In this document: piece after piece, positions 4,845 through 27,816 of the stretch
Position numbering within the stretch: position 1 is the first letter of the stretch
How the letters are laid out: every line of letters starts with the position of its first letter
NCBI GenBank assembly: GCA_944392175.1
Contig: CALXVT010000003.1
Span: 1,973 to 65,972, forward strand
Direction: 5' to 3'
Length of the DNA: 64,000 bases
Origin: an uncultured Clostridia bacterium
GTDB taxonomy: Bacteria; Bacillota; Clostridia; TANB77; CAG-508
Made by a program: the position numbers and the translations under genes
The notes under the pieces: model-generated
The model's input: only the letters and a program-made list of their open reading frames with translations
Told to the model about the DNA's origin: nothing
Databases searched by the model: none

Positions 4845-4871
4845 AAAAATAGAGCATTCTGCTCTATTTTT
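4845..4871 (-). terminator. Intrinsic terminator overlapping the sipW stop codon
   Basis: AAAAATAGAGCA-ttc-TGCTCTATTTTT inverted repeat. Confidence 0.7.
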
Positions 4872-11400: not shown

Positions 11401-13793
11401 TCAATTAAATTTTCGTGTTCTCCTGTTATATCTAAACTATACCATTGATATGTATAATCATCTAAATCTATATAAGGAAGGGCATCACCTGCAAAGTTAG
11501 CAGTAACTGTCTTTGCAGAATTGTTTCCTGTAAATTCAATATATAGTGAATATTTTTCAATCACTACATTACTAACAGAATAATATTTTCCATCTGATAC
11601 AACAACAGTATAAATAATGTCATTATATAAATCTTGTTCATGTGTTACCTGTGTTTTATCTTGTAATTCATCTACAACATTTCCTTCAAAATACCATGTA
11701 TATGAATAAGGTCCTGATGAATAATTGTTTTCCACACTCACACTATATACTGGCTTATTAGAATCGTCTATCAAAATGTCAAATCTTGGATTTAATTTAA
11801 ATGTACCATCTTCATAAATCCATTCCATATTATCATTTGCACTAGCATTTGAATTAAATGAATTTAATCTAGATGATTCATTATTTGTATATCTACCTTT
11901 ATTTAAACCTTGAACATATTCAATGTCTTCTGCTCTCCAACCAGAAGCGTTATATGAATCAGATGTGCCATTAGTTTCTGAATTTGTATATCTTGTACCA
12001 TTTGCATAAAAATTCGTATAATAACTGTCTGACATTGTTAAATTACCTGAATCATTTCCATTCCAAATTGTAGAATAATTATCACTATTATTAATGTTTG
12101 TGTTATTAATAAGTCCTGCAAAAATTGGTCCAATAAATCCATTTGAATCAATACTTCCATTATATAAACAATTTGTTGGCCATACCGCTTGTGACCTTAT
12201 TGTACCAATAATACCAGCTGTATGATATTGTCCATCACCTGTTGTAGTATAACCTCCCCAAGACCAAGAAGTATATGCCATCGCACTTACACTAATATTA
12301 CCATTTACATAACAATTAGATATTTCATATCTTTTATTATTTCCAGGATCAGTATTGCTACTAGCAGTATTTGTAGCATATCCTGCAATTCCACCAATTG
12401 CTAATTGAGTATAGTTTGTTCTTAGTGTAAGATTACTACCACCAGAAATCGCAAGATCTGTTACAATACAATTTTGAATTGTAGAATTATTATACATTGT
12501 TCCAACAATTCCACCTATATGCCAACCTTTTGCAGTATTATCACTTGCAGTAGTACCATTTGAATTAATTGTAATATTAACTGCTCTTAATTCTATGTTT
12601 TTTATAGTAATTCTATTATTTCCAGCTCCAATTGTTCCAAATAATCCAAAGTTTTCAATTGTATTAGTAGGCATAGATGCTATATCAATTTTTAAATTTG
12701 ATATATAATGACCTGCACCATCAAAAACACCTTTAAAAGAGTTATTTGTATTTCCTATAGGAGTCCAATTTTTATTATTTAAATTTATGTTTGTAGCTAA
12801 TTGGAAATATGAATTCTCGTATGTATTCCCATTATTTACCTGACTTGATAAAAAACTTAGTTCACTAGCACTTGTTATTAAATAAGGCTCTTGCTCTGTT
12901 CCATTTCCAAATTTAAATTCTGTTGCTATCGTACCATCCCATACATCTTCATAAGTTCCATCTTCTGTAATTGCTCTAGTTAAAGCAAGAGTATTAATCT
13001 TAACATCAATTTCTTGCATAATTATAAATGTACCTAAATTCTTACTCTCTAAAGATATTTCTTTGCCTTCTATTGAAAAATCATCAATTTCTGATAACTT
13101 ATCATTTTCATTTATATATAATAATTTGTATTTACTCTCATCAGTAATCTCTTCCGTGCCTTCAAAATTTATTTTAAGTTTTTCTTCAGAAGAAAATTCT
13201 TTTTCATCTTTAATAATCTCAAGCTTTAATGCAAATTTCCAGTCCATTACTGAATTAATATATTTATCTATTTCATCATTTGTTTTACTTAAATCTTCTG
13301 AATTTTGAGAAATAGCTTTTAATTCAGCATTTAATGGTAAATATCCTTCTACTATGATGTTATATCCATCTTTTTCGACTGATATTATTTGATTATATAA
13401 ATCATCTTTAATATCATAATCAATTTCAAAATTAATTTTTTTCTCTTCTATTTCTTTATCAGTTAAATAAATTGTGTCTCCTGGAAATTTTTCAACAACA
13501 TTTTCTTCTTCTGTTTCATTATCTTCATTAATTAATTTTGAAGTAATATAAAACTTACTAATTTTCTTATTATTAGCTTCATCTGGTAAAACAATACTAT
13601 AGCCACTTTCATCTTCGTCAGTGGCTTCTATAGTTTCTGTTATTTCATTTACTATATTTTTTGAATCTGAAAAGGTTGCACTAATAGAGATTACTTTTTC
13701 AGCTCGAGAATTTTGAAATGCAATTAATTCAAATATAATTAAAATTAATAGTAATATTAATAAAAGTATTTTTCCTTTTCTTATTTTTTTCAT
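5460..13793 (-). CDS. Giant (2777 aa) surface adhesin-like protein with GLUG-type region and long (V/I)YGGGN beta-helix repeats
   Basis: N-terminal TM/signal segment; WDGT...GNGTEQEPYLITSASEL motif; dozens of VYGGGN/VFGGSN Gly-Asn repeats; no LPxTG or SLH anchor seen. Confidence 0.7.
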   Translation of the reverse strand: MKKIRKGKILLLILLLILIIFELIAFQNSRAEKVISISATFSDSKNIVNEITETIEATDEDESGYSIVLPDEANNKKISKFYITSKLINEDNETEEENVVEKFPGDTIYLTDKEIEEKKINFEIDYDIKDDLYNQIISVEKDGYNIIVEGYLPLNAELKAISQNSEDLSKTNDEIDKYINSVMDWKFALKLEIIKDEKEFSSEEKLKINFEGTEEITDESKYKLLYINENDKLSEIDDFSIEGKEISLESKNLGTFIIMQEIDVKINTLALTRAITEDGTYEDVWDGTIATEFKFGNGTEQEPYLITSASELSFLSSQVNNGNTYENSYFQLATNINLNNKNWTPIGNTNNSFKGVFDGAGHYISNLKIDIASMPTNTIENFGLFGTIGAGNNRITIKNIELRAVNITINSNGTTASDNTAKGWHIGGIVGTMYNNSTIQNCIVTDLAISGGSNLTLRTNYTQLAIGGIAGYATNTASSNTDPGNNKRYEISNCYVNGNISVSAMAYTSWSWGGYTTTGDGQYHTAGIIGTIRSQAVWPTNCLYNGSIDSNGFIGPIFAGLINNTNINNSDNYSTIWNGNDSGNLTMSDSYYTNFYANGTRYTNSETNGTSDSYNASGWRAEDIEYVQGLNKGRYTNNESSRLNSFNSNASANDNMEWIYEDGTFKLNPRFDILIDDSNKPVYSVSVENNYSSGPYSYTWYFEGNVVDELQDKTQVTHEQDLYNDIIYTVVVSDGKYYSVSNVVIEKYSLYIEFTGNNSAKTVTANFAGDALPYIDLDDYTYQWYSLDITGEHENLIEGETSLTLDNLEYGTEYKLIATNNEFSALTVEGKYLYGDRTVVYCNHANGNDRNDGFSPDTPVQNLSTAYSKLDNDGTRSSNIIVIMGTYDSNSIYNYKEGSNNANTYAKKATLTGKYSNVDYNGILYFYSGTYNYRYITEDTTFQNLTFYGGRDQMYFYLQGHSLTMGEGITMQNYATSNTNQGLLGGNAPAFHIFCGWNQYNYSTLPRKNAEVIIKSGTYGRIVGGGSPGTSSGQGQPISHDFMGSSKEDSFNITITIDIQNSTTADNYDYDVNLLTGGSAAGNNYSNVVQNIKNGSVGRLIGGSIGDSATIPSGSWGNPWNYPNNTFLGTAKINVTGGSVDELYGGCLGRNMDVVGRPNATDNTCDSYYYGTIDINISGGEIISNIYGAGAGGVTGYSENSSDPYKSYGEEFDTAVNINLTGGTVGGNIYGGGYGYTEYLNANVTAVDGGSLYGDSNITISGNPTINGEIYAAGCGYNYRNKQEIAQMEGNSNIDISGTPVINGKVFGAGAGVSGYAEMAKLIGTSNINISANLGTEVYGGGNIAKTEGNTNINILDGTHTAAIYGGGNIGEIQGNSTVNIIGGTQNTVYGGGNQAKVTNSTVNINGGTNTDVFAGGNSADVETTNVLVTGGNTTTLYGGSNQTGNINTSNINATGGIVGIIYGGNNVGGNTTDANVTINGGSVTDSVYGGGNEVDTQKAEIYLIKSGNNVPNVYGGGNQAGVTEPHIYGQGGQAENVYGGSNQSGDVPNSEIIIDSGTFGTIYGGNNAGGVTTTSDITINSGKITSAIYGGGNQADTQNSNIVVNNNSDKIPNVFGGGYSANVVTSIINMNGGSIGTVFGGSNTNGTVPTTNVNINGGITDTVYGGNNMGGSTITSNVTVNTNGTAGDVYGGGNEAITEETKVIINGKVTGSVYGGGNLAQIETSTDVLVENAQVTNNVYGGGNEGIVQENANVHIKNSNLENSVYAGGNGSAAIVKGNTVLIIDGANTKIAKNAFGGGNKAATGEEGVDTSSSTVNIVSGEIGGNVYGGANTSVVYGTTKTSIGFDAVNNQNLEMGDIHIGGTVFGGGEANESGSEIFDYSFISVTKGIEIYIDGNGYDNFDIDGSIFGSGNASSTSGTSMIDIKNYGTPDDPKYNVSIQRTNTCTISNSAISLDGATDRTNEYSDTYYTISRVDNVKLKNNSVLYLDYGANLLREFDSLVDINGQEVKATVSIDENGNTVKNVDNRIYMAEGRNLNVATNEQVTAYGVVNGMTFFGIYSNRITPSSSTGLYAPNYNNGDEITNPGLFSSNSYVRAQHKPDHDITVDGFYTNYNNDGKIKVNYVDTTPKDDVYYIWTVGEAIDVTVFEVSLIASKYATFGTYELSLIGFSEPNIRFDITGVTAGFQNGVNLVDPSQIPSIADTDEAADNTYGLTMSTGNNGWFNPSETTFLTENNGSYTGSSRYDGDNSTFTPTLNFCLYHSQNLTQERNLGEVRIRLQALVPVDDLNYEIKYIDIIVSINSRLYQDDYLEAAITPGDQFGLFTSTETSITNKSSFSTYFSLYIENFAETDYYDDYNNYERVLVSTTSSGTPYVLPEGTNITMLDMVTNEYYYYIVSADDVANNKYIYNIYDFIYMGSTDRKYPESERGQIYYNKDQDLVYENFIFQINFKDTNLNTDLIDNNILMEVRNKDNQTILGVLGIQRDVMRYSVYNDKDSTIGVSAKVDQVNYLGNDINLEVTTDFTQNIADSKIIYDTQYFNQKMGIKLTFTDINGNVLQNDSLLGIYFTIDGVNYYPRIDGTTRIKIADKVSNGLSKIIINTSNNTTLATGDYTIKIESFGSSDGIYYGLNSSDSTEVHLTIINSRFGLKVTTGDEYKIINKDTGQNENSENKISGTVEYSSGLENPNITVSLYRRKYDTVYSKEYELVDLADYVSINLDEATNKNEYLFSDSPKDVMNFEFNTNSNLMTGTYKLVFKLYDNDEFIGEEYEYIIIK

Positions 13794-13812: not shown

Positions 13813-15351
13813 TTAATTTATATTTTCGTATAAACTCATTATTTCATTAATTTGATTAATGTTCATATTGGCTTTTTCTATATTTATATCTAATTTTAGC
13901 TTTCCTAAAGTTTGATATAAATTATCTATGTTATCTTCTTGAACATCATCTTTTGCTATATTAAATTTTAATAAAGAATATCTATCTTTTATTATTAATG
14001 ATATATCTTTTTCTTCTTGCATTAGTATATTATTAATTATTTGAATATTCGTAGATTTTACAAAATTATTAAAATCAATAATAAGCTCATCTATTTCCGT
14101 TGGCGTTATCGTTGGAATATATATTATAGATATGTCCCTTACATAAGATTTAAAAGAATTCGCAAATTTAAATACATCATATATAGTTGCATTATCATTT
14201 AAATCTGTATAAATCTTATTATATACTTTTGCTTTATCTAATTCTTTATATAAATTTTGAATATTTTTAATTAGCTCCGCATATTGAACATTTGTATCTT
14301 CATCCTTCTTTTTGAACAAGAAAAATTTTTTAGTTTTAACATCATTAAATTTGTCCAATTTCTTTTCTTCAATTTGGATCTTTTTTAAAGTATCTTCATA
14401 TATTTTTTTATATTGTTCTCTTGCTAAATAATGTTTCTTTATATCATCAAAAATAAATTTAAATCTCAAATAATTTTTAAATTCAAAAATATTATTATAA
14501 AATTTCAGAATATTATCTTTAATTTCTTTATCTTCTTCTAAGAATTTTATATCTATAATTTTAGCATATTCTTTTTGGATTCTATTAGGCATAAAATCAT
14601 TAATATTTACTTCTTTATTTAAAAATTTATTAATAATTGTATGTTTATCAGTATCAATTGTATTTTCAAGAATTGATTTTAAATCTAGATACTTATTAAA
14701 TATTTCATCAGATGTAAGTTCAAATTTTTTAAGTAATTCATCTTTTGCCTTTTCAAAATATTTAGACAATCTAGCTTCGTTTTGTAAATAAATATATCTA
14801 ATGTTTAATTCCAAATGAACAATTATTTCTGGACACTTCCAATAAATATCCTCAAATGCCTTTTTTATTTTTTTAGAATTCAAATTATCTTTTTCGTCAA
14901 AAAAAACTTGCATATATTCTTTAGTATACTTACTATAATTAAAATCTGATGGTTTTAAATTAATTCCTACTGATTTAAAAGAATTTATACATTGTAATAT
15001 TTCTTTATTAACATTTTCCAAATTGTCTTTATAATATCTTTTAAGCCTCCATATGTTTTCATCTAAATTCATTTTTTCATATGGAGTTTTAAAAGAATTT
15101 AAAATATGTAAATTATCTTCCATTTGGTCTAATGATGTTTTTAATTCTAAAATTTCTTTATTTTCTTTTAAATCACTCATTTTTTTCGAATATCTATTTT
15201 TAATTTCATTATAGATTTCTTCTTTAATTTTAAAATATTCTTCTTTTAAATCTTCTAATGATTTTTTGAATTTTTCTTTATTTTTCTTATTGTTTTTTGG
15301 CATATTATCCAAAATTTCTTTACTTACTGATATTTTATCTAAAAACTCCAT
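13813..15351 (-). CDS. Hypothetical cytoplasmic helical/coiled-coil protein
   Basis: 512-aa ORF with AGGAG RBS; K/E/I-rich, no TM segment or recognisable catalytic motif; 19 bp upstream of the giant gene. Confidence 0.7.
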   Translation of the reverse strand: MEFLDKISVSKEILDNMPKNNKKNKEKFKKSLEDLKEEYFKIKEEIYNEIKNRYSKKMSDLKENKEILELKTSLDQMEDNLHILNSFKTPYEKMNLDENIWRLKRYYKDNLENVNKEILQCINSFKSVGINLKPSDFNYSKYTKEYMQVFFDEKDNLNSKKIKKAFEDIYWKCPEIIVHLELNIRYIYLQNEARLSKYFEKAKDELLKKFELTSDEIFNKYLDLKSILENTIDTDKHTIINKFLNKEVNINDFMPNRIQKEYAKIIDIKFLEEDKEIKDNILKFYNNIFEFKNYLRFKFIFDDIKKHYLAREQYKKIYEDTLKKIQIEEKKLDKFNDVKTKKFFLFKKKDEDTNVQYAELIKNIQNLYKELDKAKVYNKIYTDLNDNATIYDVFKFANSFKSYVRDISIIYIPTITPTEIDELIIDFNNFVKSTNIQIINNILMQEEKDISLIIKDRYSLLKFNIAKDDVQEDNIDNLYQTLGKLKLDINIEKANMNINQINEIMSLYENIN

Positions 15352-15741: not shown

Positions 15742-16728
15742 TTATTCAGTTGCTTTAGTTATTTGAACGTTAAATGATATATCTGTACCAGATGCATTAT
15801 TTTCACAGTCTACATCTTGTCCTTCTACCCACATATATATTCTAACTTTAGTAATACCAGCTTTTAAATTTAATAATGATTGTTGAGCATCAAAGTCTTT
15901 TGGAGTAGAAATTGTAGGTGTTACAGCTTGAAAATAGTCTCCAAAATCATCTGCACTCGCAGTTTTTAATGTTACACCTTGATCTATATCAAATGCAGCT
16001 TTTATTCCATCATAAGCTAATTGATCTCCACCAGTTGTTGTTGTATCTATATTATAAATTTCTTTTGCATTATAAACACCTGATTGAGTATGAACATCAT
16101 AATTTGGTTCCCAAATAATAGAAGTAGTTCCGTCTTTTAATGCCTGTGCTTGAGATGATTGTGAAACATCGGAAACATTACCTTCATCTATAAATGCAAC
16201 TCTTGCAGCATTTTGTAATCCTTTATCTGTTGCTCCTTGTTTATATGTAACATTAGACGCTGTTGTTAAATAAACTTGAGATGGTTGGTCAATTCTTAAG
16301 AAAATATCAAAAGCAATATATGTTCCTGTTGTTCCTCTTGTATCTGTTAATTTATTTGAAACTAAAGTATAGTCTGCTCCAGAATCATCTGCATCAACTT
16401 CTCCTGAGAACATATCCATAACACCAGCTGTTACAGTTCCAGCTGTTGAAACTGGTTCCATTTCATCAGGCATTTGGTTTGTATTTGTAGCATATGTAGC
16501 AGTAGCACCTGTTATATCTTCTTTTTGTAATATTGTTTTCCAATTTATTGCATCTGCTGAAATTTGTAAACCATTAGATGTTTGAACATTAACATCTAGT
16601 GTACTAATAGTTACTGTTTGGTTTGCAGTAAACCAAGCATATGTAGATACTATTAAAAATACTAATAAAAGTAATAGTAATAATAATGAGTATCTTAAAT
16701 TGTTTTTTCTTTTGTTCCTCTTTGCCAT
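15742..16728 (-). CDS. TasA/camelysin-like fibre subunit with SipW-type signal peptide (probable major subunit)
   Basis: Basic N-terminus, hydrophobic stretch, then STYAWFT (SipW-cognate cleavage motif); Thr/Asp-rich beta-type body; has its own promoter and terminator. Confidence 0.75.
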   Translation of the reverse strand: MAKRNKRKNNLRYSLLLLLLLLVFLIVSTYAWFTANQTVTISTLDVNVQTSNGLQISADAINWKTILQKEDITGATATYATNTNQMPDEMEPVSTAGTVTAGVMDMFSGEVDADDSGADYTLVSNKLTDTRGTTGTYIAFDIFLRIDQPSQVYLTTASNVTYKQGATDKGLQNAARVAFIDEGNVSDVSQSSQAQALKDGTTSIIWEPNYDVHTQSGVYNAKEIYNIDTTTTGGDQLAYDGIKAAFDIDQGVTLKTASADDFGDYFQAVTPTISTPKDFDAQQSLLNLKAGITKVRIYMWVEGQDVDCENNASGTDISFNVQITKATE

Positions 16729-16867: not shown

Positions 16868-17608
16868 TTATACTTGATTTGCAGTATTTTGTTGCTCTGT
16901 GTGTTCTTCTGTAATATCCATGTGCATTTTCATTTCCCCGCCAATTAATTCATCCGTACAATCAGGATCATCTCCCTCTAAAAATATTACAATAGTAAAT
17001 TTATCTATCTCACCTGGTTGCATATTTTGTCTTTGCTGTAAAATTAAATTTGTATTACTATAAAATGGTGTTGTTATTTCATCTCCAAAAATCTCTGCTT
17101 CACCTGTTGTTTCATTGGCTTTAGCATATATTGTTTGTTCATCATTTCTTATTACCATTATTCTTATAGCTCTATCTACATTTTTTATAACATCGTCTGA
17201 AATAATTGTATACCAATAATTAATTGGATCCACACCTTGATTTTCCAAATAAAAACTATATGCTAAATAATTATCACCATTATGGCTTCCCTCTCCCTCA
17301 GACAAATTATCTGGAAGCCATTTTACACATATATTATCCATATATTCTAATTTTTCAGCTTTTAAAATTCTTTTATGTTGCTTATCTGCTAAACGCTCAT
17401 ACATAACAAGACCACTTTTTTCTTCTAATTGTGGATCTAAAGATACAGTAAAATCTCCTAATTCATATACAACTCTTAAAATAAAATACAATATAATTAA
17501 AAATAGTAAAATTAAAAGTATTGTAATTTTTAGAATTTTTATTTTTTGTTCTCTTTTCTTTACTTTCTCAGAATCTAAAGTAATTTTGGCTTTGTTCTTA
17601 TTTTTCAT
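16868..17608 (-). CDS. Membrane-anchored TasA-related accessory subunit
   Basis: N-terminal TM; C-terminus FLEGDDPDC matches WVEGQDVDC of the 15742 protein; MQPG motif. Confidence 0.6.
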   Translation of the reverse strand: MKNKNKAKITLDSEKVKKREQKIKILKITILLILLFLIILYFILRVVYELGDFTVSLDPQLEEKSGLVMYERLADKQHKRILKAEKLEYMDNICVKWLPDNLSEGEGSHNGDNYLAYSFYLENQGVDPINYWYTIISDDVIKNVDRAIRIMVIRNDEQTIYAKANETTGEAEIFGDEITTPFYSNTNLILQQRQNMQPGEIDKFTIVIFLEGDDPDCTDELIGGEMKMHMDITEEHTEQQNTANQV

Positions 17609-17678: not shown

Positions 17679-18272
17679 ATGAAGAATTATAAAAAATTAT
17701 TAATTTTACTTGCAGTAATTTGTTTAGCAATTGCTATAATCTCATTTTTATTAATTTATGCTAAATATACTACATCTGCTAATAGTCAAACTGATGTGCC
17801 AATTGCAAGATGGAATATTTTAGTAAATAATATATCTATTAAGGATCAATCAGATATATCCCAAACATTACAACCAATCTTTCCTGGCAACGAAAATATC
17901 GCAAAAGATATACTCGCACCTACTGCTGAAGGCTATTTTGATTTATATTTTGATTATAATGATGTAGATGTATCCTTTAAATATACAATTTCATTAGCAC
18001 CTTCTGAACAAAGTTCAGTTAAAGATATTGTTGCAACAGGCTATTCAGTAGATGATGGTGAAATCATTAATTTTACAAATTATAATGAAGATATTACAGA
18101 TAGTATTAGTTTGGATAATCCAACCAGAACACGAAAGATTCGAGTATATGTAAAATGGAATGATGATTCAAATACTGCTACAATGGATAATTATGCAGAT
18201 ACAGAATCAGCTCTATCTGGTAATCCTGCATTATTTAACGTAAATATAACTTTTGACCAAATAATTGCTTAA
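17679..18272 (+). CDS. TasA-like subunit with SipW-type signal peptide
   Basis: IYAKYTT cleavage-like motif; ARWNI...LAPTAEGYF...DVSFKYTI...VKW shared with the 25362 protein. Confidence 0.65.
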   Translation: MKNYKKLLILLAVICLAIAIISFLLIYAKYTTSANSQTDVPIARWNILVNNISIKDQSDISQTLQPIFPGNENIAKDILAPTAEGYFDLYFDYNDVDVSFKYTISLAPSEQSSVKDIVATGYSVDDGEIINFTNYNEDITDSISLDNPTRTRKIRVYVKWNDDSNTATMDNYADTESALSGNPALFNVNITFDQIIA

Positions 18273-18367: not shown

Positions 18368-19621
18368 TTAATTAGCACTCTGCTCTGCAGTTAATTCAAA
18401 TTTAACAATTAAACCTTTTCCATCTGGATTATTTTCTTGAAATTCATAAGATTTATTTCCATAATAAGTATCTACAATATCATTTCCAGATTCAAATGGC
18501 CATACAACTTTTACAGTAAACTTACCTTGACCAGTTCCTGCTTCAATTTGATTTGAAGATGTATCTATTGTAATCTTAAATGGATAAGATTCTAAAATGT
18601 TCTGTAAATCATCAGATGTATATTGCTCCCCTATTTCGTACTTTTCTCCAAATATTTCTATAGATGTTATTCTATAAGATAATTCAGCATTTATTTCACC
18701 TTTATTTACAACTTCAATTTCTTTTGTATAATCTTCCATTCCAGGATAAATTCTATCAATTTCTAATACGATATCATTTTTGATTATCTGGTCATCTGTT
18801 TTAAAATCAATTTCCCATGCAGCAACATGAGTATCTAATTCTAATGATGCTTTTGTAATATAAATAAACCATGCAAATGCATTAAACGCTAAAAGTACAA
18901 TTAAGATAATCATTGTTTTTGTATTAATATATTTAATTATGTTTTTTGTTTTTTTTTTATTTTTCTCCTCTGTTTCTTCAGTTACTTCTTCTTTTTCCTT
19001 TTCTTTCTCCTGTACTTTTTCTTCATTTGAATTATTTTTGTTTTTTTCTTCGTTATTTTCTTCTATTTCTTTTTTTCCTTCTTTATAACTTATTATGTTG
19101 TCAACAATTATTTTACAGATAATTACAGCTACTGGAACAAATATTAAGAAATAGAATGCATATATATTATTTATTATTTTACTTATAAAACTTAATATTA
19201 TTGTCTTATATACAATTTTTCCATAAATTTGATCTTCAGAAATTTCTGGATCTTCTAATTCATTTGCAACTCCTTTTGTAATAAAATAATATTTTCCGTT
19301 TTCTTCCCTTTTGGATATAACTCTATGTGTTACAATTCTACCGTTAAGATCTTGTGCTTCACCTTTGTATACTATATCATCGCCAACTTGAATTTCTTCC
19401 GGAGAAATTTCTCTAGATACCAAAATATCGCCAACATTATATACAGGAACCATACTTCCTGTTGCTACATTAAATATTCTAAAACCTGCAATAGTTAAAT
19501 TATTATTAGAAAACCTTTGTATTGCTACGACTAACAAAACGAAAACAATAATTATATATAATAATACATATATTGTTTTACCTATCCCTTTTAATATTTT
19601 ATTGTTCAGAATATTTTTCAT
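18368..19621 (-). CDS. SipW-type signal peptidase fused through a charged linker to a TasA-like subunit
   Basis: N-half VATGSMVP, VTHRV, TKGVAN; E/K linker; second signal-like segment ending NAFAWFI; C-half AAWEI...IYPG...VVW. Confidence 0.7.
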   Translation of the reverse strand: MKNILNNKILKGIGKTIYVLLYIIIVFVLLVVAIQRFSNNNLTIAGFRIFNVATGSMVPVYNVGDILVSREISPEEIQVGDDIVYKGEAQDLNGRIVTHRVISKREENGKYYFITKGVANELEDPEISEDQIYGKIVYKTIILSFISKIINNIYAFYFLIFVPVAVIICKIIVDNIISYKEGKKEIEENNEEKNKNNSNEEKVQEKEKEKEEVTEETEEKNKKKTKNIIKYINTKTMIILIVLLAFNAFAWFIYITKASLELDTHVAAWEIDFKTDDQIIKNDIVLEIDRIYPGMEDYTKEIEVVNKGEINAELSYRITSIEIFGEKYEIGEQYTSDDLQNILESYPFKITIDTSSNQIEAGTGQGKFTVKVVWPFESGNDIVDTYYGNKSYEFQENNPDGKGLIVKFELTAEQSAN

Positions 19622-19633
19622 CTTATGTTCCTC

Positions 19634-20746
19634 CTATATAAGTTGTTTCATATAGTCATCAATATATTTTTTAAATATAGCTTGAACTTCTTGCATACTA
19701 ACAGCTTTTTTAAATTTTATTTTTTCAAACTTATCTCCAACAAGTTCTTTAATTTGATCTATAGTTAAGTTTGCATTTAAATTAATTAATTTATCTAATA
19801 AATACTCTATCATTTCGTCTCTAGACATATCTTGTTCTTCGTCTAATTTACTCTTTTTAGTTAGTTCCTGTGATGCTAAATAATCAATAAAAAATGTTTC
19901 ATCAACTATTCTTTTTAGTTTTCCATTTTCAATATATTCTTTTTTTTCTTTTTCTATTTTTGTTTTATTATCCATATTTTCTTGAATATAATCCCATAAT
20001 TTCATTGCATATTGAAAATTTACATTTTTTAAAATTAAGTTTGTCTTTTTTATTGGTGGTCTAATTAATCTAATATTTATTTTATCAATTTGTTTATATA
20101 CATCCACCATTGTTAATTCATTAATTTTTTTGTCTATTCCATCTATTCTGTCTAAAATTTCTTTTTTTTTCTTTCTTTTCTCGTCTTCAGTAATATTTAA
20201 TTTTGTGGATAAAGTTAAATTTATCGCCACATCCTTATTATGAAGCCTTGCTGTTCCTATATAAGATATGTATTTTTCATCTTTAACATCTTTTTTTAAG
20301 TTTTCTTCTACTATTTTTCTTTTTTTACCAGAAAACATTTTCATATTTTGAATTAATGTATAAATAAGTCTATTTTCATATGTATCATACGTTTCTTCTT
20401 TATGGATATTAAGAATTTTAGATGGTTTTACATTATCTTCTTTCTTATCTACTTCTTGTATTAAATTAGTATGTTTAGAAAGATGCTTAATACTATCTAC
20501 AGTTATTTTTCTAGCCAATTCGATTTTTACAATTTCTTCTTCATTTACTATAAATCTATTAGGATTACGTAAAATGTTATCAATATATGGAATAGTTTCT
20601 TCCATTTTTTCTATCCATTCTATATCATTAAAATAATTCTCATAATCAATATTTATTTTTGCATTAGATTCTAATTTGGACATAAAACGATCTAATTCAT
20701 TTTTATTAGCATTTTCATACAATTCGTTTAATTCTAATTTTTTCAT
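19634..20746 (-). CDS. DUF2357-like (McrC-related N-terminal domain) protein with no evident nuclease domain
   Basis: TYDTYENRLIY and TNLILKNVNFQYAMKLW resemble DUF2357 motifs; lies directly downstream of the McrB-like gene. Confidence 0.6.
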   Translation of the reverse strand: MKKLELNELYENANKNELDRFMSKLESNAKINIDYENYFNDIEWIEKMEETIPYIDNILRNPNRFIVNEEEIVKIELARKITVDSIKHLSKHTNLIQEVDKKEDNVKPSKILNIHKEETYDTYENRLIYTLIQNMKMFSGKKRKIVEENLKKDVKDEKYISYIGTARLHNKDVAINLTLSTKLNITEDEKRKKKKEILDRIDGIDKKINELTMVDVYKQIDKINIRLIRPPIKKTNLILKNVNFQYAMKLWDYIQENMDNKTKIEKEKKEYIENGKLKRIVDETFFIDYLASQELTKKSKLDEEQDMSRDEMIEYLLDKLINLNANLTIDQIKELVGDKFEKIKFKKAVSMQEVQAIFKKYIDDYMKQLI

Positions 20747-20757
20747 TTAACTACCTC

Positions 20758-22278
20758 TTAAGTTAATTTTTTTAGCCTTAGTAAAAATTCTGTACATTCT
20801 TTCATTTTATTTTTTCCAAAAGTTTTGTCTAAAAAGTTTATATATGGATCAATTTCATCTTTTATGTATGCAATGTTTAATTGTTCGAATTTTCTTAGTA
20901 TTTTTTTTGCAATAAAATAATCTACACCTGCGACTTCATCTCCACCACATGCAACATAAACCGGTACAAATTTTTTCATATGTGAAACAATACGGTTACC
21001 AAAAGCTATTCTAAAATGTTGAATTACATAATCATCCATTTGTTCGATCTTTTCTAGTGTACTATTTGAAATTGGATGTTCATTCATTGCACTTTCAAAT
21101 ATTTCTTCTAAATATGAGTAATTAACATCCATTGGATCTGTATCTATTGGATTAAATGCTTTACCTTTATCATTAATATCTATAGGCATAGCTCTATCAT
21201 ATACTTTATCTGTAACCATAAATGTTGAATCATCATTATTAATTGTTCCTATATACCACATATTTGCTGGAACTTTTATTTTTCCTCCAATTATATGTTT
21301 AGGATCTGTTTTCCAACTATTTGGTACTAATTCAATAATCCATTCATCCTTATTTGGCATTTCCAAAATAGAAAGCATTTCGGCAAAATAATATTCAACA
21401 CGAGAAATGTTCATTTCATCTAAAATTACAGTATAAACGTCATCTGTATAGCCTGCAATATACATTTCTTTTAATACTTCTGTTTCATTAAACTTTTTAG
21501 TAAACTCATTAAAATATCCAAATAATTCTGTTCTATCTCTCCAAGATGGTTGTACAGATGCAACACAAGAATCATGTTTCATAAATTTTCCCCAAGCATA
21601 TGCTAATGATGTTTTACCAGTACCAGAAATACCTTGTAATATTACAAGTTTTGTAGAAGCTAGTGCTGATATAAATAATCTCATCATATCAATTGTATAA
21701 TATAAACCTAATCTTGAAGCTGCAAAATTTCTAAAGTTTTCACATAGTTCTGGTAAAGTAAATGAATCTCCATAATTTTTAACTCTATAATTTTTATATT
21801 CTTCATCAATAGCCGTTAATTTAGCAAATCTAGATTCTTTGTCAGGATCTATTGGTTCTTCATTATCAATATCTTCTGTTGGTGATTCTCCAGGTTTTAA
21901 TCCTAATTGAGAAACTTTCATTGCTAAAATATCTTCTTTTTCTTTTACTAAATTAGCTACTTTATTATTTAAAGTCGCAACTTCATCTAAAAGCTCTTCT
22001 TTCTCTATTGCAGATTTTCTAAATTTAAAATATTTTCTAAATAAAAAATAGATTAATAAAACAATTGCTGCAACAAATATAATTAAAAGAGCTATAGAAA
22101 TACCAACCAATAGCCATTCAGGAAGTGAAAGATCATTTTTGTATGAATTTAAAATGTTTTGATATTCTTTTAAATTAAAAGCCTTAGCTAATCCACTTCC
22201 TATTCCTTTAAATATATCTCCTATACCAGAAAAAAATTGATTTAAAAATTCGTATAAAAATCTTGTAAATGTTTCCAT
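20758..22278 (-). CDS. McrB-like AAA+ GTPase with N-terminal transmembrane helix and coiled coil
   Basis: Walker A GISGTGKT; VQPSWRD; Walker B ILDEMNISRVEYYFA; McrB-type NxxD in GTINNDDST; DKVYDRA; TM segment WLLVGISIALLIIFVAAIVLLIYFLF. Confidence 0.8.
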   Translation of the reverse strand: METFTRFLYEFLNQFFSGIGDIFKGIGSGLAKAFNLKEYQNILNSYKNDLSLPEWLLVGISIALLIIFVAAIVLLIYFLFRKYFKFRKSAIEKEELLDEVATLNNKVANLVKEKEDILAMKVSQLGLKPGESPTEDIDNEEPIDPDKESRFAKLTAIDEEYKNYRVKNYGDSFTLPELCENFRNFAASRLGLYYTIDMMRLFISALASTKLVILQGISGTGKTSLAYAWGKFMKHDSCVASVQPSWRDRTELFGYFNEFTKKFNETEVLKEMYIAGYTDDVYTVILDEMNISRVEYYFAEMLSILEMPNKDEWIIELVPNSWKTDPKHIIGGKIKVPANMWYIGTINNDDSTFMVTDKVYDRAMPIDINDKGKAFNPIDTDPMDVNYSYLEEIFESAMNEHPISNSTLEKIEQMDDYVIQHFRIAFGNRIVSHMKKFVPVYVACGGDEVAGVDYFIAKKILRKFEQLNIAYIKDEIDPYINFLDKTFGKNKMKECTEFLLRLKKLT

Positions 22279-22288
22279 GCCTTACCTC

Positions 22289-23275
22289 TTATTTTTCAAT
22301 TAAATTTTTTATTTCTTTTTTATGTTTTATTATTTCATTATAATTACTCAATTCATTACTTAAAATTGAATATTCAAACATGCTTAATCTTTCTAAACTT
22401 TCTAAATCAGGTTTAAAACTTTCATCTAAATAAACAGAAAATTTATAACCTAATTTAATAAACTTATATATATTATCTTTATATTTTATAAAATTACTAT
22501 ATGTAATTAGTAAACTAGCTTTTTCTTGTAAAGCAGAAGAGTTAAGTATATTTAATAAACTTTTCATCTTTTTTTGTTTATTTAGTAAGCTTTCAGCTAA
22601 ATTTAATATATATTTCTTCTTAAAATCATGGCCTAATATATCATTTAAGATATCTCTTGATACTATTGAATATTCTACTTGTAATTTATCTTCATTTGTA
22701 GTACCTGTAGAAAAAGCTGTTTCTATAAAACTTTTACTATAAATCTTAGAAAATTTTATATTAAATTCTAATTTCGAAATATAAATATATTTACCTAATT
22801 TAAAATATTTAACATTAAATATTTTACTTTCATACTTTTCCTTTAAAGATCTTTTTAAATTATCATAATAAATATTTTTATCTAAAAAGATATTTTTAAA
22901 ATTATTATCCTTATGTGTTTCTATATATATTTCTTGTAATTTATTTAATGAAACCTCTTCGCTTTGAACTGTACTTACATTATCAAACACCAATAAATTT
23001 TTAAATATTTCACATTGTGAGTTTAAAATATTTTCTTTATATATACCTTTATCAAGCATATTAGATTTTGTAGTTTCAATTTCATTAATTAACCTATCTC
23101 TAAAAGTCCTAATATTTGTATCTTCTATAAAATTATAATATCTTGATTCTATATAATTTTCTAAATAAATATTAAATATTTCAGTATTAAAATTTTTACC
23201 TAATATTAATTTAGAGTAATCTTTAAATTCTTCTTTTAAAATACTTATATATCTATCTACTATATTAGTAATCAT
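22289..23275 (-). CDS. Hypothetical protein with possible degenerate EAL domain at the C-terminus
   Basis: C-terminal LLITYSNF...KLGYKFSVYLDESF...LERLSMFEYSIL follows the EAL pattern LEITE...G..ialDDFG...L..l..d.iKID but lacks the catalytic residues. Confidence 0.45.
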   Translation of the reverse strand: MITNIVDRYISILKEEFKDYSKLILGKNFNTEIFNIYLENYIESRYYNFIEDTNIRTFRDRLINEIETTKSNMLDKGIYKENILNSQCEIFKNLLVFDNVSTVQSEEVSLNKLQEIYIETHKDNNFKNIFLDKNIYYDNLKRSLKEKYESKIFNVKYFKLGKYIYISKLEFNIKFSKIYSKSFIETAFSTGTTNEDKLQVEYSIVSRDILNDILGHDFKKKYILNLAESLLNKQKKMKSLLNILNSSALQEKASLLITYSNFIKYKDNIYKFIKLGYKFSVYLDESFKPDLESLERLSMFEYSILSNELSNYNEIIKHKKEIKNLIEK

Positions 23276-23285
23276 TTTTCTCTCC

Positions 23286-24215
23286 TTAGTATGTATTTAC
23301 TGTTATAATTGGTGTTCCTTCTCCTTTATAGCTATAATCTTTTGTAATATCAGTTTTGTAAAATCTAATTTTTATACTTGTTATTGCATCTATTGTTAAA
23401 GAAAACTTATTTATATATGTATAATTATCAATTTTAGCAGTTGTAACATCAGTTCCTTCTTTAAAAGTACTATCTGTTACATCAATTAAAACATTATTCG
23501 GATCAAATTCAACATTAACTCTTGCAGAATAACATTTAGCTTTATTTTCTTCTGATAATTGTTGGTAAGCATCTGATGTAATTCTATCTCCCACTGAATA
23601 ATTATCAAAAGCTTCATTAACTGTATAATATGAAAGTGTATTTGTTATTTTTAATTCTAAATATTGTCTATTTGAAACATCTTCAATTTGATATGATAAA
23701 TTTTCTTTTCCAACAACAAGAGTAAATTTTCCAGTTATTGTCTTTTTATATGGCCCTTTAGATGTTGCTGTAATTTCCACCCATACAGTATCGCCTGTAT
23801 CTAATCTTGCATTAGGCGTAATTAAAATATTAAAAAAATCTGTATTAGTATCTGCAGAAATTGTTCCATTTGTTTTACTTATATCACAAATTATATTGTC
23901 TGAATAGCTATAACTTATATCATAATCAATATCATATGAAGTTACTTTTAAATTATTGCTTCTGCTATTCATATTTATTGTAATTTCATAATTATCCACA
24001 CCTGACCAATTTTCTACTTGATATTCCGCTCCTTCTTCTTTTAATTTATCACTATAAAAATAAAATTCTTTAGAGCGTAAGAAAAAATCATGAATACTAC
24101 TTGTTGCGTATTTTCCAAATACTGTTATAAAAAATACAATTATTATAAATACTATAAAAAAAATCAATATTCTTTTGTTTCTTTTTGTCTTTTTAAAATA
24201 ACTTTTTTTAGACAT
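23286..24215 (-). CDS. Secreted beta-rich subunit with SipW-like signal peptide
   Basis: Basic N-terminus, hydrophobic stretch, then TVFGKYAT; Thr/Asp/Asn-rich body; within the sipW gene run. Confidence 0.6.
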   Translation of the reverse strand: MSKKSYFKKTKRNKRILIFFIVFIIIVFFITVFGKYATSSIHDFFLRSKEFYFYSDKLKEEGAEYQVENWSGVDNYEITINMNSRSNNLKVTSYDIDYDISYSYSDNIICDISKTNGTISADTNTDFFNILITPNARLDTGDTVWVEITATSKGPYKKTITGKFTLVVGKENLSYQIEDVSNRQYLELKITNTLSYYTVNEAFDNYSVGDRITSDAYQQLSEENKAKCYSARVNVEFDPNNVLIDVTDSTFKEGTDVTTAKIDNYTYINKFSLTIDAITSIKIRFYKTDITKDYSYKGEGTPIITVNTY

Positions 24216-24229
24216 CTTTTACTCCTAAA

Positions 24230-24793
24230 TTATTGAATTGTTGTTTGTGTTGAATCTACTGAAATTTCAATTAATTCTATTACATCTTGGTAATCTATAG
24301 AGCTATAGTCTTCAGAAAAATTAACTACTAATGTATATGTATTAATACTTTCATTACTATGCTTAAAATATCTAGAGCCTAATTCCATTGTTCTAAAATA
24401 TGTACCATCATCATCTTGTTCTGTTTTAGTAGTTAAATCAATAATTTCATTATTATTTTCAAGTAATTCAAATGTTAATGGCAAATTAGTAGTAGTTCTT
24501 AGTTTTAATTTATATTCCAAATCTGTTTCTGCTATATGTCCATCTTTTTCATTTGAAATTGTAAAAACATAAGTATATGGATTAGAACTAGGTAATAAAG
24601 AATCAAGATTTAATGTCATTTCCTGATAGTCCTCGTTTAGAATATAAAACGCTGTATCTATATTTGCTTCTGAATCTGCTGTTGTTTCATATCTAGACAT
24701 TACCAAAGTAATAATTCTTATTAGTATTAAAATACATAAAATTAATATAATTACTTTTTTTAATAATATCTTGTTTTTTCTTGACATGTCCAC
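24230..24793 (-). CDS. TasA-like minor subunit with SipW-like signal peptide
   Basis: VMSRYET after the hydrophobic stretch; LLPSS...FTISN...DLEYKL pattern similar to the other subunits. Confidence 0.6.
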   Translation of the reverse strand: MDMSRKNKILLKKVIILILCILILIRIITLVMSRYETTADSEANIDTAFYILNEDYQEMTLNLDSLLPSSNPYTYVFTISNEKDGHIAETDLEYKLKLRTTTNLPLTFELLENNNEIIDLTTKTEQDDDGTYFRTMELGSRYFKHSNESINTYTLVVNFSEDYSSIDYQDVIELIEISVDSTQTTIQ

Positions 24794-24866: not shown

Positions 24867-25352
24867 TCATTTAAGAAGCAAAATAATCCGAAGTAATATT
24901 AGCATTATAAATATTGGAATAATTACTTGTGGTGTAAAAATGATTTTTCTCCAAAGGGAAAAATCCGGAATAATATTTACAACTTTACCAATCAAATCAC
25001 TTTTTTGCATTGGTTCATCTTCTGTATTATTTGCATCACCTTTAGTAATAAAATTATCTTCTTCAATCTTAATTAATCTATGTGTTATAAAAGCATTATC
25101 TTTATTACAAACAATAATATCGTTTTCATTTACTTCATTTGTTATTTTAACAATAATTACATCTCCAACATCAATTGTTGGCTCCATACTACCTGTTGCT
25201 ACCTCAAAAAAAGTATATCCAAAAATATTTGCGTATGGTTTATTCACAATTTTTATTTGTACAAAATAATATATTGCTAAAATTATAATTATTGTTACTA
25301 ATATAATTAAAATATTTAAAATATATCCTAATATCTTTGACAGTTTTTTCAA
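24867..25352 (-). CDS. sipW: Signal peptidase I, SipW/ER-type (S26B)
   Basis: VATGSMEP, ITHRL, TKGDANN; TTG start with AGGAG RBS. Confidence 0.88.
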   Translation of the reverse strand: MKKLSKILGYILNILIILVTIIIILAIYYFVQIKIVNKPYANIFGYTFFEVATGSMEPTIDVGDVIIVKITNEVNENDIIVCNKDNAFITHRLIKIEEDNFITKGDANNTEDEPMQKSDLIGKVVNIIPDFSLWRKIIFTPQVIIPIFIMLILLRIILLLK

Positions 25353-25361
25353 ATCAATCTC

Positions 25362-25967
25362 CTAACCATCGTATTTTTCAATCGTTTCACCAAGATACTG
25401 GCTAACTTTAATCTCAACTGGAATTTTAATTTGATTATTTGGTTTCTCACCAATATCTATATCTTTTAAATCATTATCTTCCCATTTAACATTCACTTGT
25501 ATATTATCTGTTGTCCCTTTTTTTATGTCATCAAGTAAAATTGTACCAGTATATTCATTTTTATTAGTATTAATTAAATCTTTATTATTATTTATCTCAT
25601 TAACTGAAACAATTTCTATATTTGCATTATCAATATATTGTGTATCTAACTTTATTTCATATTTAATAGATACATCTGTATCAGATGGATCTATTAAAAT
25701 ATTAAAATTACCATTCAAACCTGGTGCTAGTTTTCCAGATTCAACTCCTTGTGATTCATCTACGTTTAATGCATCTATAGTAAAAGTTTTTACAGTTGAT
25801 GAAGATATATCGGTATTATTTACTATAATTTTCCATGTTGCACTATCTATTTTCATATCTCCTGAAAACTCACTTGTAAAAGTAGCATATGTATAAATTA
25901 TTGCACAAATTATAAATATTGCTAATAATATTAAAAATAAAGCTATTATTATCTTCTTTTTATTCAT
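25362..25967 (-). CDS. TasA-like subunit with SipW-type signal peptide
   Basis: TYATFTS motif; ATWKI...LAPGLNGNF...DVSIKYEI...VKWED. Confidence 0.7.
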   Translation of the reverse strand: MNKKKIIIALFLILLAIFIICAIIYTYATFTSEFSGDMKIDSATWKIIVNNTDISSSTVKTFTIDALNVDESQGVESGKLAPGLNGNFNILIDPSDTDVSIKYEIKLDTQYIDNANIEIVSVNEINNNKDLINTNKNEYTGTILLDDIKKGTTDNIQVNVKWEDNDLKDIDIGEKPNNQIKIPVEIKVSQYLGETIEKYDG

Positions 25968-26808
25968 TTGATTTATCCTCTGGTTTTGTTTTCTTAGTTG
26001 TTTTTCTGGTTGTTTTTTTCTGAGTTGTCGGAGTTTCTGTTTTTCTTTCAGTATCTTTTTTTACTGAAGATTTTTTAGAAGTAGATTTAGTTGTTGATGA
26101 ATTAGTTTTATTTGATGTTTCTTTCTTTGTACTAGTTTTCTTTTTTTCTGTGTTTTTATTAGACTCCTTTTTTACTGGTTCTTCTATAACTTCTTCATTT
26201 TCTGTTTCGGTCTTTTTGTTTTTATTATCATCTATATCTTCTTCATCGTCATCTTTTTCTGATTTATCAGTCTCATTATCATCATCTTCTTCTGCTTCCG
26301 CCTTTTTACCTTCTCTAATTTCTGTAAAAACAACAGTGATTTCATATATGAATGCAAATAATGAAGGGAAAACAATCAGAATTAAGAATCCCCATTTTGA
26401 TTCTAATACACCAAGTACTGTACCGATAGTGGAAATTTTTGTTACATCTTCAGCATTTCCTAAAACATATTCACTTGAAATAGATCTATCACCATCAATA
26501 GCATAAGTATATTCTGAGTCATTTACTTTTTCCACATTTTGAACTGTTGCTAATGTAACCTCAACAACATCAGCAGAAGAATTGTAAAAGAAAATTGTAT
26601 CTCCTTCTCTTATTCTTTTGCTTTTATCTACAATTACTAAATCACCTTTATTATAGGTTGGTTCTAGTTCTTCATTATCTACAATAACTAAAGAAGTATC
26701 TCCAAATTCTGAAACCTTATACTCATTAAAAGATAGCAGACATATCGTTACAAATACTGCTATTATTGCATAAATTATAAATATTATATTTCCTATTGTT
26801 CTTTTCAT
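25960..26808 (-). CDS. Degenerate SipW-like protein (pseudo-peptidase) with acidic and then Lys/Thr-rich cytoplasmic tail
   Basis: SipW topology and LEPTYNKGDLVIV box, but the catalytic Ser and His positions are not conserved. Confidence 0.6.
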   Translation of the reverse strand: MKRTIGNIIFIIYAIIAVFVTICLLSFNEYKVSEFGDTSLVIVDNEELEPTYNKGDLVIVDKSKRIREGDTIFFYNSSADVVEVTLATVQNVEKVNDSEYTYAIDGDRSISSEYVLGNAEDVTKISTIGTVLGVLESKWGFLILIVFPSLFAFIYEITVVFTEIREGKKAEAEEDDDNETDKSEKDDDEEDIDDNKNKKTETENEEVIEEPVKKESNKNTEKKKTSTKKETSNKTNSSTTKSTSKKSSVKKDTERKTETPTTQKKTTRKTTKKTKPEDKSNE

Positions 26809-26982: not shown

Positions 26983-27816
26983 ATGATTAAATTTTCTACT
27001 AAAGATGATTTGCTGAAAGACATTGAATTAGAGCAAAAATCAATTAATCTTCATATTAGTAGTCAAATAAGTTTAAGCAACGAATTAGTATCTTCTATAA
27101 ATTCAATTACAGAAGATAATTTTAATGATTTTACTAAATATATAATCAATATAAAAAATAATATTGGCTTATTTAATACACTTAGTGAGAAATTAGATAT
27201 TCTAAAAGAAGAAAACGATGATGATAAAATAAAAAATATTATAAATGATTATAATCAAATATATGTATCATCTATTAATAATATTTTTTCTTCTAACTTA
27301 GAAATTCAAAGATTTATTGATAATTTACCTACTAATAATGAAAATATAAATTTGGAAAATAAAATTAATAATATTACATATATAGAAAATACTTTACTTA
27401 TTTCTGAAGTTGCTAAAGTTGTAATCTTACCATACACAATAAAATCATTAAATGAAAAACTTTCAAATTCTTCAGAATATAAAAATATAAATGAAATAAT
27501 TAATGAAGAATATACTATTCCTTTAGTTTATTATAAACATACAGCTATATGTAGATTTAAAGAAGCTATGAAATTAGCATTAAACAAAGATAAAACATCA
27601 TATTTTAAAGCTCTTTCTTTAGCAATTGAATGTCTAACAAATTATAACTTACATCCAGCAATTATTACTGCATGTAAATCTCTTGATGATTTAGATATAT
27701 ATTTGTCTTGTTTAGAAGATAATCAATTAGAAGATTTTAAAATATTTAATATAAAATATGAAATGCTACCAAAAGTAGTTAAAGTAAAAGATAATGTTAT
27801 AACTCAAAATACATAA
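26983..27816 (+). CDS. Hypothetical protein
   Basis: 277-aa ORF with GGAGG RBS; conserved-looking C-terminus LHPAIITACKSLDDLDIYLSCLE. Confidence 0.7.
   Translation: MIKFSTKDDLLKDIELEQKSINLHISSQISLSNELVSSINSITEDNFNDFTKYIINIKNNIGLFNTLSEKLDILKEENDDDKIKNIINDYNQIYVSSINNIFSSNLEIQRFIDNLPTNNENINLENKINNITYIENTLLISEVAKVVILPYTIKSLNEKLSNSSEYKNINEIINEEYTIPLVYYKHTAICRFKEAMKLALNKDKTSYFKALSLAIECLTNYNLHPAIITACKSLDDLDIYLSCLEDNQLEDFKIFNIKYEMLPKVVKVKDNVITQNT

Follow-up and report, generated by a model that had tools for sequence, protein, structure and literature searches.

The GTPase and its McrC-like partner

We analysed a stretch of 64,000 nucleotides (referred to as the window) from an uncultured Clostridia bacterium of the GTDB lineage TANB77; CAG-508 (assembly GCA_944392175.1, contig CALXVT010000003.1, positions 1,973 to 65,972). 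The G+C content of the window is about 25%, and the source genome comprises 1.8 Mb in 68 contigs. Its minus strand carries two adjacent genes, 20758..22278 and 19634..20746, which encode a McrB-family AAA+ GTPase homologue of the NxD type (506 amino acids, aa) and a McrC-like partner (370 aa). The latter is composed of a DUF2357 domain and a helical C-terminus, and no PD-(D/E)xK domain was detected in it. The two open reading frames (ORFs) are separated by 11 bp and belong to a co-directional minus-strand run with intergenic gaps of 10-14 bp. McrBC is the textbook modification-dependent restriction enzyme. A preliminary description of the window, made by a model from the letters and a list of ORFs, had proposed that the GTPase-activator module of McrBC is kept here, but redirected from DNA cleavage to a membrane process such as fibre secretion, subunit remodelling or envelope sensing.

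From its N-terminus, the GTPase consists of an amphipathic helix (residues ~2-45), a transmembrane (TM) helix (~55-80), a coiled coil (~85-120), an acidic linker (~121-165) and the AAA+ domain (~170-506); the N-terminal modified-DNA-binding domain of McrB was not found in residues 1-165. Hydropathy calculated according to Kyte-Doolittle (KD) over 19 residues reaches its maximum of 3.28 at residues 62-80, with corresponding values of 2.93-3.76 in 24/24 homologues. Residues 2-33 are amphipathic (mean KD 0.17-0.76, hydrophobic moment 1.7-2.0), the motif RKYFKFRK comes directly after the TM helix, and the AlphaFold2 (AF2) model displays a single continuous helix from 52 to 120. The amphipathic segment, TM helix and coiled coil that the preliminary description had read at this end of the protein are therefore borne out by hydropathy and by the model. 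A match to an FtsL-like family was weak (NF053549, FtsL_Actino, E 0.0032, residues 58-134).

The motifs GISGTGKT (216-223), DEMN (287-290), GTINNDD (344-350) and DRA (361-363), which had been quoted in favour of an intact McrB-type core, are all present and invariant across an alignment of 24 homologues. A single-sequence phmmer search of the PDB with the GTPase yielded E. coli McrB as its sole match (E 0.033), and the profile of the 24-sequence alignment returned three distinct sequences, all of them McrB (E 7.6e-5 to 1.5e-4). Pfam AAA_5 gave no match to the GTPase at E<=0.1, and the NCBI label of a close homologue is 'hypothetical protein'. In the alignment with McrB, DEMN is placed on DEIN, N290 on N282, N347 on N333 and D349/D350 on D336. 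Mutation of N282 or D336 of McrB was reported to abolish the stimulation by McrC (PMC6624300). Walker A, Walker B, N290 (the Asn after Walker B), N347 and D349/D350 are all invariant in the GTPase homologues, and with its coupling residues conserved in this way the GTPase-activator module appears to be kept, as had been claimed.

The partner matches Pfam DUF2357 (PF09823, the N-terminal domain of McrC) with E 1.5e-12 and 47.8 bits (cut-off 23.3). The match spans residues 54-150, equivalent to profile positions 95-191 of 251, and PF09823 is the sole family in all 120 partner homologues among the matches listed. The motif DTYENR, from which a DUF2357-like protein had first been suspected, falls in an invariant block of the homologue alignment (E117, E118, Y123, E124, N125). 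According to its AF2 model (predicted local distance difference test, pLDDT, 72.6), the protein forms a bundle of helices from which a beta-hairpin (155-182) protrudes, and four helices make up its end (276-369), the model being weak at residues 300-350 (pLDDT 47-62). Structural searches with this model tested mostly residues 34-225. A Foldseek search of the PDB gave nothing at E<=0.001, with TolC-like helices in the top rows. The VIA wide search placed the McrC chains 6ut5_G and 6hz4_M at ranks 10-11 (Z 7.5, root-mean-square deviation 3.5-4.0 A over 109-113 residues) among unrelated helical bundles, a result that seems compatible with DUF2357 and is not significant alone, and it returned no nuclease chain in its best 50 rows. 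Since a Pfam scan of the partner found no nuclease, no acidic/Lys triad is conserved in the alignment after residue 131, all 80 locus copies are 360-410 aa long and the C-terminus is helical, we regard the nuclease as absent from the partner, with a small doubt attached to the low pLDDT at 300-350. The invariant residues after position 131 are P231, T235, N236, L239, K240, N241, F244, A247, L250 and W251. The preliminary description had likewise seen a helical C-terminus and no PD-(D/E)xK motif, and neither Pfam, the alignment, AF2 nor Foldseek detected such a fold in the partner.

Gene order, co-inheritance and neighbouring genes

Gene order was surveyed in 80 related loci of species-representative genomes, and in 80/80 the partner comes directly behind the GTPase. 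Behind the partner lies a gene for a SipW-type signal peptidase (18368..19621, minus strand, in the window), found at this place in 75 of the 76 loci with sequence there, and a SipW gene is present somewhere in 78 of the 80 loci. The gene immediately upstream of the GTPase is u328 (22289..23275, minus strand), which encodes a conserved 328-aa cytoplasmic protein without a family and precedes the GTPase in 69 of the 75 loci with upstream sequence. Among 13 close loci from the same order, the partner comes directly after the GTPase in 12. The thirteenth (L018 in genome G121; C1:391295-415248) is rearranged: an unrelated gene follows the GTPase, and the McrC-like gene and the gene for the secreted protein sec328 are located ~18-22 kb upstream on the same contig, the McrC-like gene at a distance of 21 kb. 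At least 581 of the 599 candidate stretches taken from species-representative genomes encode a relative. Matching protein clusters number more than 8000, with full-length homologues free of stops. The carriers are for the most part uncultured Bacillota of the gut, classed in their record titles as Clostridia, Bacilli, Tenericutes, Mycoplasma or Erysipelotrichaceae.

Co-occurrence was determined in 201 genomes of the same order, 24 of which have a match to the GTPase. In one of these (G180) the match is an AAA_5 protein that is only distantly related (32% identity) and lies in a different context, and the remaining 23 genomes are exactly the 23 with a strong partner match (E<=2.1e-48); three further genomes have marginal partner matches only. 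The secreted protein sec328 (15742..16728, minus strand), with a SipW-dependent-type signal peptide (YAWFT), is present in all 23, with weak or fragmentary matches in four other genomes. Secreted protein sec309 (23286..24215, minus strand), with a signal anchor and a KYATS motif, was found in 21 of the 23 and also in four others, one match being strong (G086, at a contig end). This shared presence and absence of GTPase, partner and sec328 indicates that the locus is gained and lost as a unit. In G074, one of the four other genomes with a sec328 match and a genome without the GTPase, a 40-residue fragment (C5:123501-123620) is 73% identical to the C-terminus of sec328 and may be the remnant of a lost locus.

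Across the 80 loci, identity amounts to 65-88% for the GTPase, 34-69% for the partner, 24-77% for sec328 and 23-54% for u328. The GTPase is the most conserved gene of the locus, a pattern that suits the core of a machine. Some genomes, such as G050 (C24, C56) and G125 (C11, C88), harbour two GTPase copies, with 72-73% and 63-64% identity to that of the window; the copies seem to fall into two locus subtypes that differ in gene order, as L013 does from L020/L021. If the pair were a decayed McrBC restriction system that had arrived by chance in a surface-protein locus and had no link to it, the lack of both the DNA-binding domain and the nuclease would be accounted for. However, this explanation is contradicted by synteny and conservation, namely by the adjacency in every locus with SipW next in nearly all of them, by the same 23 of 201 genomes carrying GTPase, partner and sec328, by more than 8000 full-length homologues without stops and by the invariance of the catalytic motifs. 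We consider it extremely improbable.

Four signal-peptidase-I paralogues are encoded in the window, three of which retain the Ser and His columns of the catalytic site. The gene next to the partner specifies a 417-aa protein, the N-terminal half of which is the peptidase (TIGR02228 7.5e-25, Ser and His kept) fused to a secreted-type domain. The second paralogue has 161 aa (24867..25352, minus strand; TIGR02228 2.9e-22, Ser and His kept), and the matches of both proteins to TIGR02228 lie above the cut-off, which identifies them as archaeal-type signal peptidase I. A further paralogue of 198 aa (4864..5460, minus strand) matches Pfam S24/S26 and keeps Ser and His. The signal-peptidase-like protein of 282 aa (25960..26808, minus strand) lacks both catalytic residues, is SipA-like and probably inactive. 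Its tail of ~120 residues, rich in K, E, T and S, recalls inactive SipA-type pilus assembly factors. The C-terminal half of the 417-aa protein has its own TM/AWF segment, and nearly all related loci have two adjacent genes of ~200 aa instead; a real fusion or a lost stop codon could be the cause.

At least six small secreted proteins are encoded at the locus, with signal anchors ending in Y-A-x-F/T-T/S motifs. Apart from sec328 and sec309, these are sec187 (24230..24793, minus strand), sec201 (25362..25967, minus strand), sec197 (17679..18272, plus strand), the sole gene of the core block on the opposite strand, and sec246 (16868..17608, minus strand), a secreted or membrane protein with a long basic N-terminal tail. 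Of the sec328 family, 17/43 members match TIGR04088, the model of the 'SipW-dependent-type signal peptide' (best E 2.5e-5), and a PDB profile search with this family gave no match. The largest product is a giant secreted protein of 2777 aa (5460..13793, minus strand), rich in N, G, T and S, with a Sec-type signal peptide, no Pfam family and no C-terminal LPxTG. In those locus proteins that were scanned, no sortase turned up, and the secreted proteins of the locus gave no direct match to TasA/Peptidase_M73 models.

Two more proteins, like u328, belong to no family in the Pfam scan: cc512 (13813..15351, minus strand), a K/E/N-rich cytoplasmic protein of 512 aa, and u277 (26983..27816, plus strand), a cytoplasmic 277-aa protein at the locus edge. 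Within 10-kb flanks, they were found in 23 and 17 of the 80 loci, respectively. No nuclease family was recognised by Pfam in the 14 + 10 locus proteins scanned, and a PADLOC scan of u328, cc512 and u277 yielded no nuclease or other effector (best E 0.042), although distant or novel nucleases may escape such scans. The alignment of the u328 family contains no conserved Arg or His, and a PDB profile search with this family found nothing. A lead towards a degenerate EAL domain in u328 came from an Atlas cluster (0.88, rank 17, 13% EAL members) and from 2/38 family members matching Pfam EAL (best E 0.035). It was dismissed, as hhalign against eight genuine EAL domains of relatives gave a probability of 0.15%. 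Expression data were likewise set aside: run X20 (guessed to be RNA, share 0.06) contains short contigs identical to parts of sec328, sec309, cc512 and the junction of sec201 with the gene of the 282-aa peptidase, which is too weak to use, and its pieces over the GTPase and partner are diverged and were not used.

Just beyond the locus, the minus strand encodes a 1174-aa protein with about ten ricin-type lectin repeats and a peptidase M14 domain (600-4124) and a 209-aa protein with a weak Zn-phospholipase-C-like match (4140-4769), which also accompanies the locus in L027 and L028. On the other side, a transpeptidase ORF (29450-30517, 355 aa) and a transglycosylase ORF (30738-31979, 413 aa), both on the minus strand, lie ~220 bp apart. 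Their relatives are longer ORFs (691 and 568 aa) that match the transpeptidase part, and the two may represent a split or frameshifted class A penicillin-binding protein.

Relation to CoCoPALM and other known systems

Bell et al. (eLife 2024, PMC11090510) have described a branch of McrB GTPases that carry NxD in place of the longer NxxD signature, in most cases with D or E as the next residue. Within it, the authors named a clade CoCoPALM, which they treated as 'CoCoNuT-like' and deferred to a future paper. In CoCoPALM, the GTPase is of the NxD type, carries a fused FtsB-like segment of TM helix and coiled coil, and is linked to signal-peptidase genes; supplementary file 1 of the same article gives HHpred E-values of 1.2 for the similarity to FtsB and of 8.1e-8 for that of the neighbouring peptidase to SipA. 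A full-text search for 'CoCoPALM' retrieved only this paper and its preprint, and a literature search for 'SipW' together with 'McrB' brought up incidental co-mentions only, e.g. in an E. coli genotype.

The GTPase of the window shares the signature of this branch. GTINNDDST lines up without shifts against GTANHDETT, found in plasmid CoCoNuT-like GTPases, and against GTINLDETT of L023; N347 and D349 do not vary in this alignment, and position 350 is occupied by D or E. NNDD is also readable as NxxD, aligning ungapped to NTAD of McrB, so that the motif alone does not discriminate. The GTPase further possesses the TM helix and coiled coil of an FtsB-like anchor, with a homology to FtsB that is as weak here as in PMC11090510, and it is accompanied by a DUF2357 partner and by the four signal-peptidase paralogues in a member of the Bacillota, as in CoCoPALM. 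In the example pair RHC33374/RHC33375 (supplementary file 1, PMC11090510), a signal-peptidase gene lies directly beside the GTPase, which was also observed in L019, L022 and L104. Neither MBO6243434 nor CoCoPALM accessions occur in the available portion of supplementary file 3 of PMC11090510, and the membership therefore rests on features rather than on the authors' list. Judged by these features, the two proteins are the putative McrB-like and McrC-like subunits of a CoCoPALM system. The idea put forward in the preliminary description is accordingly already in print as a prediction, and CoCoPALM is experimentally uncharacterised.

According to the published description, the McrC homologue usually, and hence not obligatorily, bears a coiled coil. 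With 370 aa the partner encoded in the window is short; four helices are predicted at its end, and it does not have the long K/R/E-rich coiled-coil tail of 48 of its 150 best relatives. Among these 150 representatives, 69 have the short form (301-420 aa) as in the window, and the 48 exceed 500 aa; the extension is K/R/E-rich, with at least 40% K+R+E in 28/48. A PD-(D/E)xK match was not found in any of 20 long relatives scanned. Two long relatives stand out by additional domains after a full McrC-like module, P0313 (652 aa) by a C-terminal AAA_15 and an OLD-like TOPRIM and P0321 (1124 aa) by YjbR-like domains.

As to the neighbouring genes, PMC11090510 suggested a connection to SipA/sortase pili. 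Because three of the four peptidases keep Ser and His and the secreted proteins have SipW-type signal peptides, the link of the locus looks like SipW/TasA-type export more than SipA/sortase pilus assembly. PMC11090510 devotes three sentences to CoCoPALM, which do not cover the make-up of the locus, its distribution or its mechanism. What the present analysis adds is the anatomy of the locus, the figures on co-inheritance and the split into active and inactive peptidases (predicted from the Ser/His columns). In the SipW-TasA operon of B. subtilis and the SipW-BsaA operon of C. perfringens, archaeal-type signal peptidase genes also stand beside several SipW-dependent-type secreted proteins, and paralogous subunits occur within one operon (PMC11580942). 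In contrast to the window, these operons have no NTPase (nucleoside triphosphatase), and the locus of the window includes the 2777-aa secreted protein.

Compared with E. coli McrBC (PDB 6hz4, 6ut6), the AAA+ core with Walker A, DE(I/M)N and the N..D signature is the same, and a DUF2357 activator is encoded directly downstream. However, the GTPase has a TM helix and a coiled coil instead of the N-terminal DNA-binding domain, no PD-(D/E)xK domain was detected in the partner, the locus offers no methyltransferase or restriction context, and the similarity is low, with a best profile E of 7.6e-5. The relation to CoCoNuT (CnuB/CnuC) is closer in the NxD-type GTPase, which is 34-37% identical to plasmid-borne members, and in the N-terminally fused coiled coil, and McrC homologues of CoCoNuT often lack an active nuclease as well. 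CoCoNuTs without the McrC nuclease are, however, always paired with HEPN or other nucleases (PMC11090510), neither of which was detectable at the window locus, and CoCoNuT GTPases have no TM helix.

CoCoPALM could nevertheless be an anti-phage or conflict system, the McrBC-like module sensing an invader or an envelope insult and the peptidases and secreted proteins serving as its effector arm, e.g. as a surface barrier, by receptor masking or in membrane-directed abortive infection. Such a role is suggested by the homology to Type IV restriction and CoCoNuT, by the 'CoCoNuT-like' class assigned by Bell et al. and by the match of the GTPase to the PADLOC defence-candidate model PDC-M26A (E 9.1e-34; 'PDC-M26' is absent from a full-text literature search). 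The patchy presence within the order would fit as well, as would the nearest plasmid relatives, which reside in CoCoNuT-like operons made up of an ~800-aa AAA ATPase, a 630-705-aa DUF2357 protein and a 1095-aa AAA-domain protein, and the OLD-like TOPRIM domain of P0313. On the other hand, neither Pfam nor PADLOC revealed a nuclease, HEPN or other known effector domain in the pair, u328, cc512 or u277, and a GTPase conservation as high as 65-88% is unusual for defence genes. Close copies were found neither on plasmids, where all 281 records are below 60% identity (best 36%), nor on phages (best match 32.5% identical), and none of these matches covers 80% of the query. Moreover, a 2777-aa secreted protein and several pilin-like proteins would be odd defence effectors. 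We judge a defence function unlikely, though by no means negligible.

Proposed role of the module

Given its architecture and its neighbours, we consider it fairly probable that the pair is a dedicated non-nuclease component of a surface-protein locus. Since none of the DNA-handling parts is left in the module and its genes stay tied to those for membrane-tethered precursors and peptidases, the module would most likely power or time the processing or polymerisation of such precursors into a surface structure. The redirection to a membrane or surface process claimed in the preliminary description fits the absence of the DNA-binding domain and the nuclease and the co-inheritance with SipW; which process is served, be it secretion, assembly or sensing, we infer from the genomic context only.

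We propose the following model. The DNA-reading N-domain of the McrB homologue would have been replaced by an FtsB-like membrane anchor of TM helix and coiled coil, and the McrC homologue would have kept its ring-binding, GTPase-activating DUF2357 domain and lost the nuclease. By analogy with McrBC, the GTPase may form a hexameric ring under the membrane with six TM/coiled-coil stalks, on which the DUF2357 protein would dock and trigger sequential GTP hydrolysis around the ring. Instead of DNA cleavage, the GTP cycle would serve the ~20-kb locus, which is predicted to supply three active peptidases and one inactive peptidase of the SipW type, at least six SipW-dependent secreted proteins and the giant secreted protein. 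The cycle may thereby power or time the processing, release or polymerisation of the tethered precursors into a surface fibre. A complex prediction with two AAA+ domains (170-506) and the partner (1-310) scored 0.00 and was used neither for nor against this arrangement.

Several observations weigh against a role in surface-protein biology. Conflict systems account for all relatives that have been characterised (McrBC) and for the closest predicted ones (CoCoNuT), and the GTPase matches a defence-candidate model of PADLOC. The distribution is patchy, with the GTPase present in 5/26 genomes of the genus in addition to the figures for the order; adhesin and pilus islands are also patchy, like defence islands. 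The TasA-like nature of the secreted proteins is suggested by signal-peptide matches and by one weak Atlas lead (Peptidase_M73, 0.86), and the Sec-dependent donor-strand fibres of TasA and BsaA assemble without a dedicated NTPase (PMC11580942). Finally, the AF2 model of the AAA+ core of the GTPase is poor, with a pLDDT <50 at residues 236-337, probably because the alignment was too shallow and its sequences too similar. A Foldseek search with this model returned RavA as best match (2.3e-4) and also MCM and dynein, with McrB at rank 9 (E 7.6e-3), which seems to reflect only the general AAA+ helix-2-insert fold. The MoxR/RavA AAA+ proteins belong to the same helix-2-insert clade, remodel proteins and do not act on DNA, and they would provide a precedent for a protein substrate. 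They differ from the GTPase studied here in that no sequence-level match exists and in that the partners of RavA are VWA proteins and not DUF2357.

The assembly of TasA and BsaA fibres without a dedicated NTPase would also be in line with a regulatory switch instead of a motor, in which the FtsB-like-anchored GTPase gates when or where the locus proteins are exported or cleaved, e.g. at the division site, and performs no mechanical work. The TM and coiled-coil anchor resembles FtsB/FtsL, and GTP hydrolysis in McrBC is a partner-gated cycle (PMC6624300). However, the resemblance to FtsB has little statistical weight, a switch built as a hexameric AAA+ ring with its own activator would be costly, and the locus contains no domain resembling a signalling input, the EAL lead for u328 having failed. 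We therefore regard a pure switch as a quite unlikely explanation. More specifically than the role in surface-protein biology preferred above, the McrB-like ring and the nuclease-less McrC-like subunit may constitute the NTP-driven assembly or extraction motor of an unrecognised class of SipW-dependent surface fibres in small-genome gut Bacillota, a suggestion that we make tentatively and consider doubtful.

The pair belongs to a widespread branch of McrBC in which both DNA-handling domains appear to be lost, a membrane anchor is gained and the module is locked into a secreted-protein locus. This would be a clear exaptation of a defence motor for cell-surface biology or, alternatively, a defence system whose effector arm, directed at the envelope, is of an entirely new kind. 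If the motor reading were true, a pilus machine would have arisen from the motor of a restriction enzyme, and no AAA+ GTPase before it would have been shown to work on protein precursors tethered to the membrane instead of on DNA. The bacteria concerned are abundant, mostly uncultured inhabitants of the gut with small genomes.

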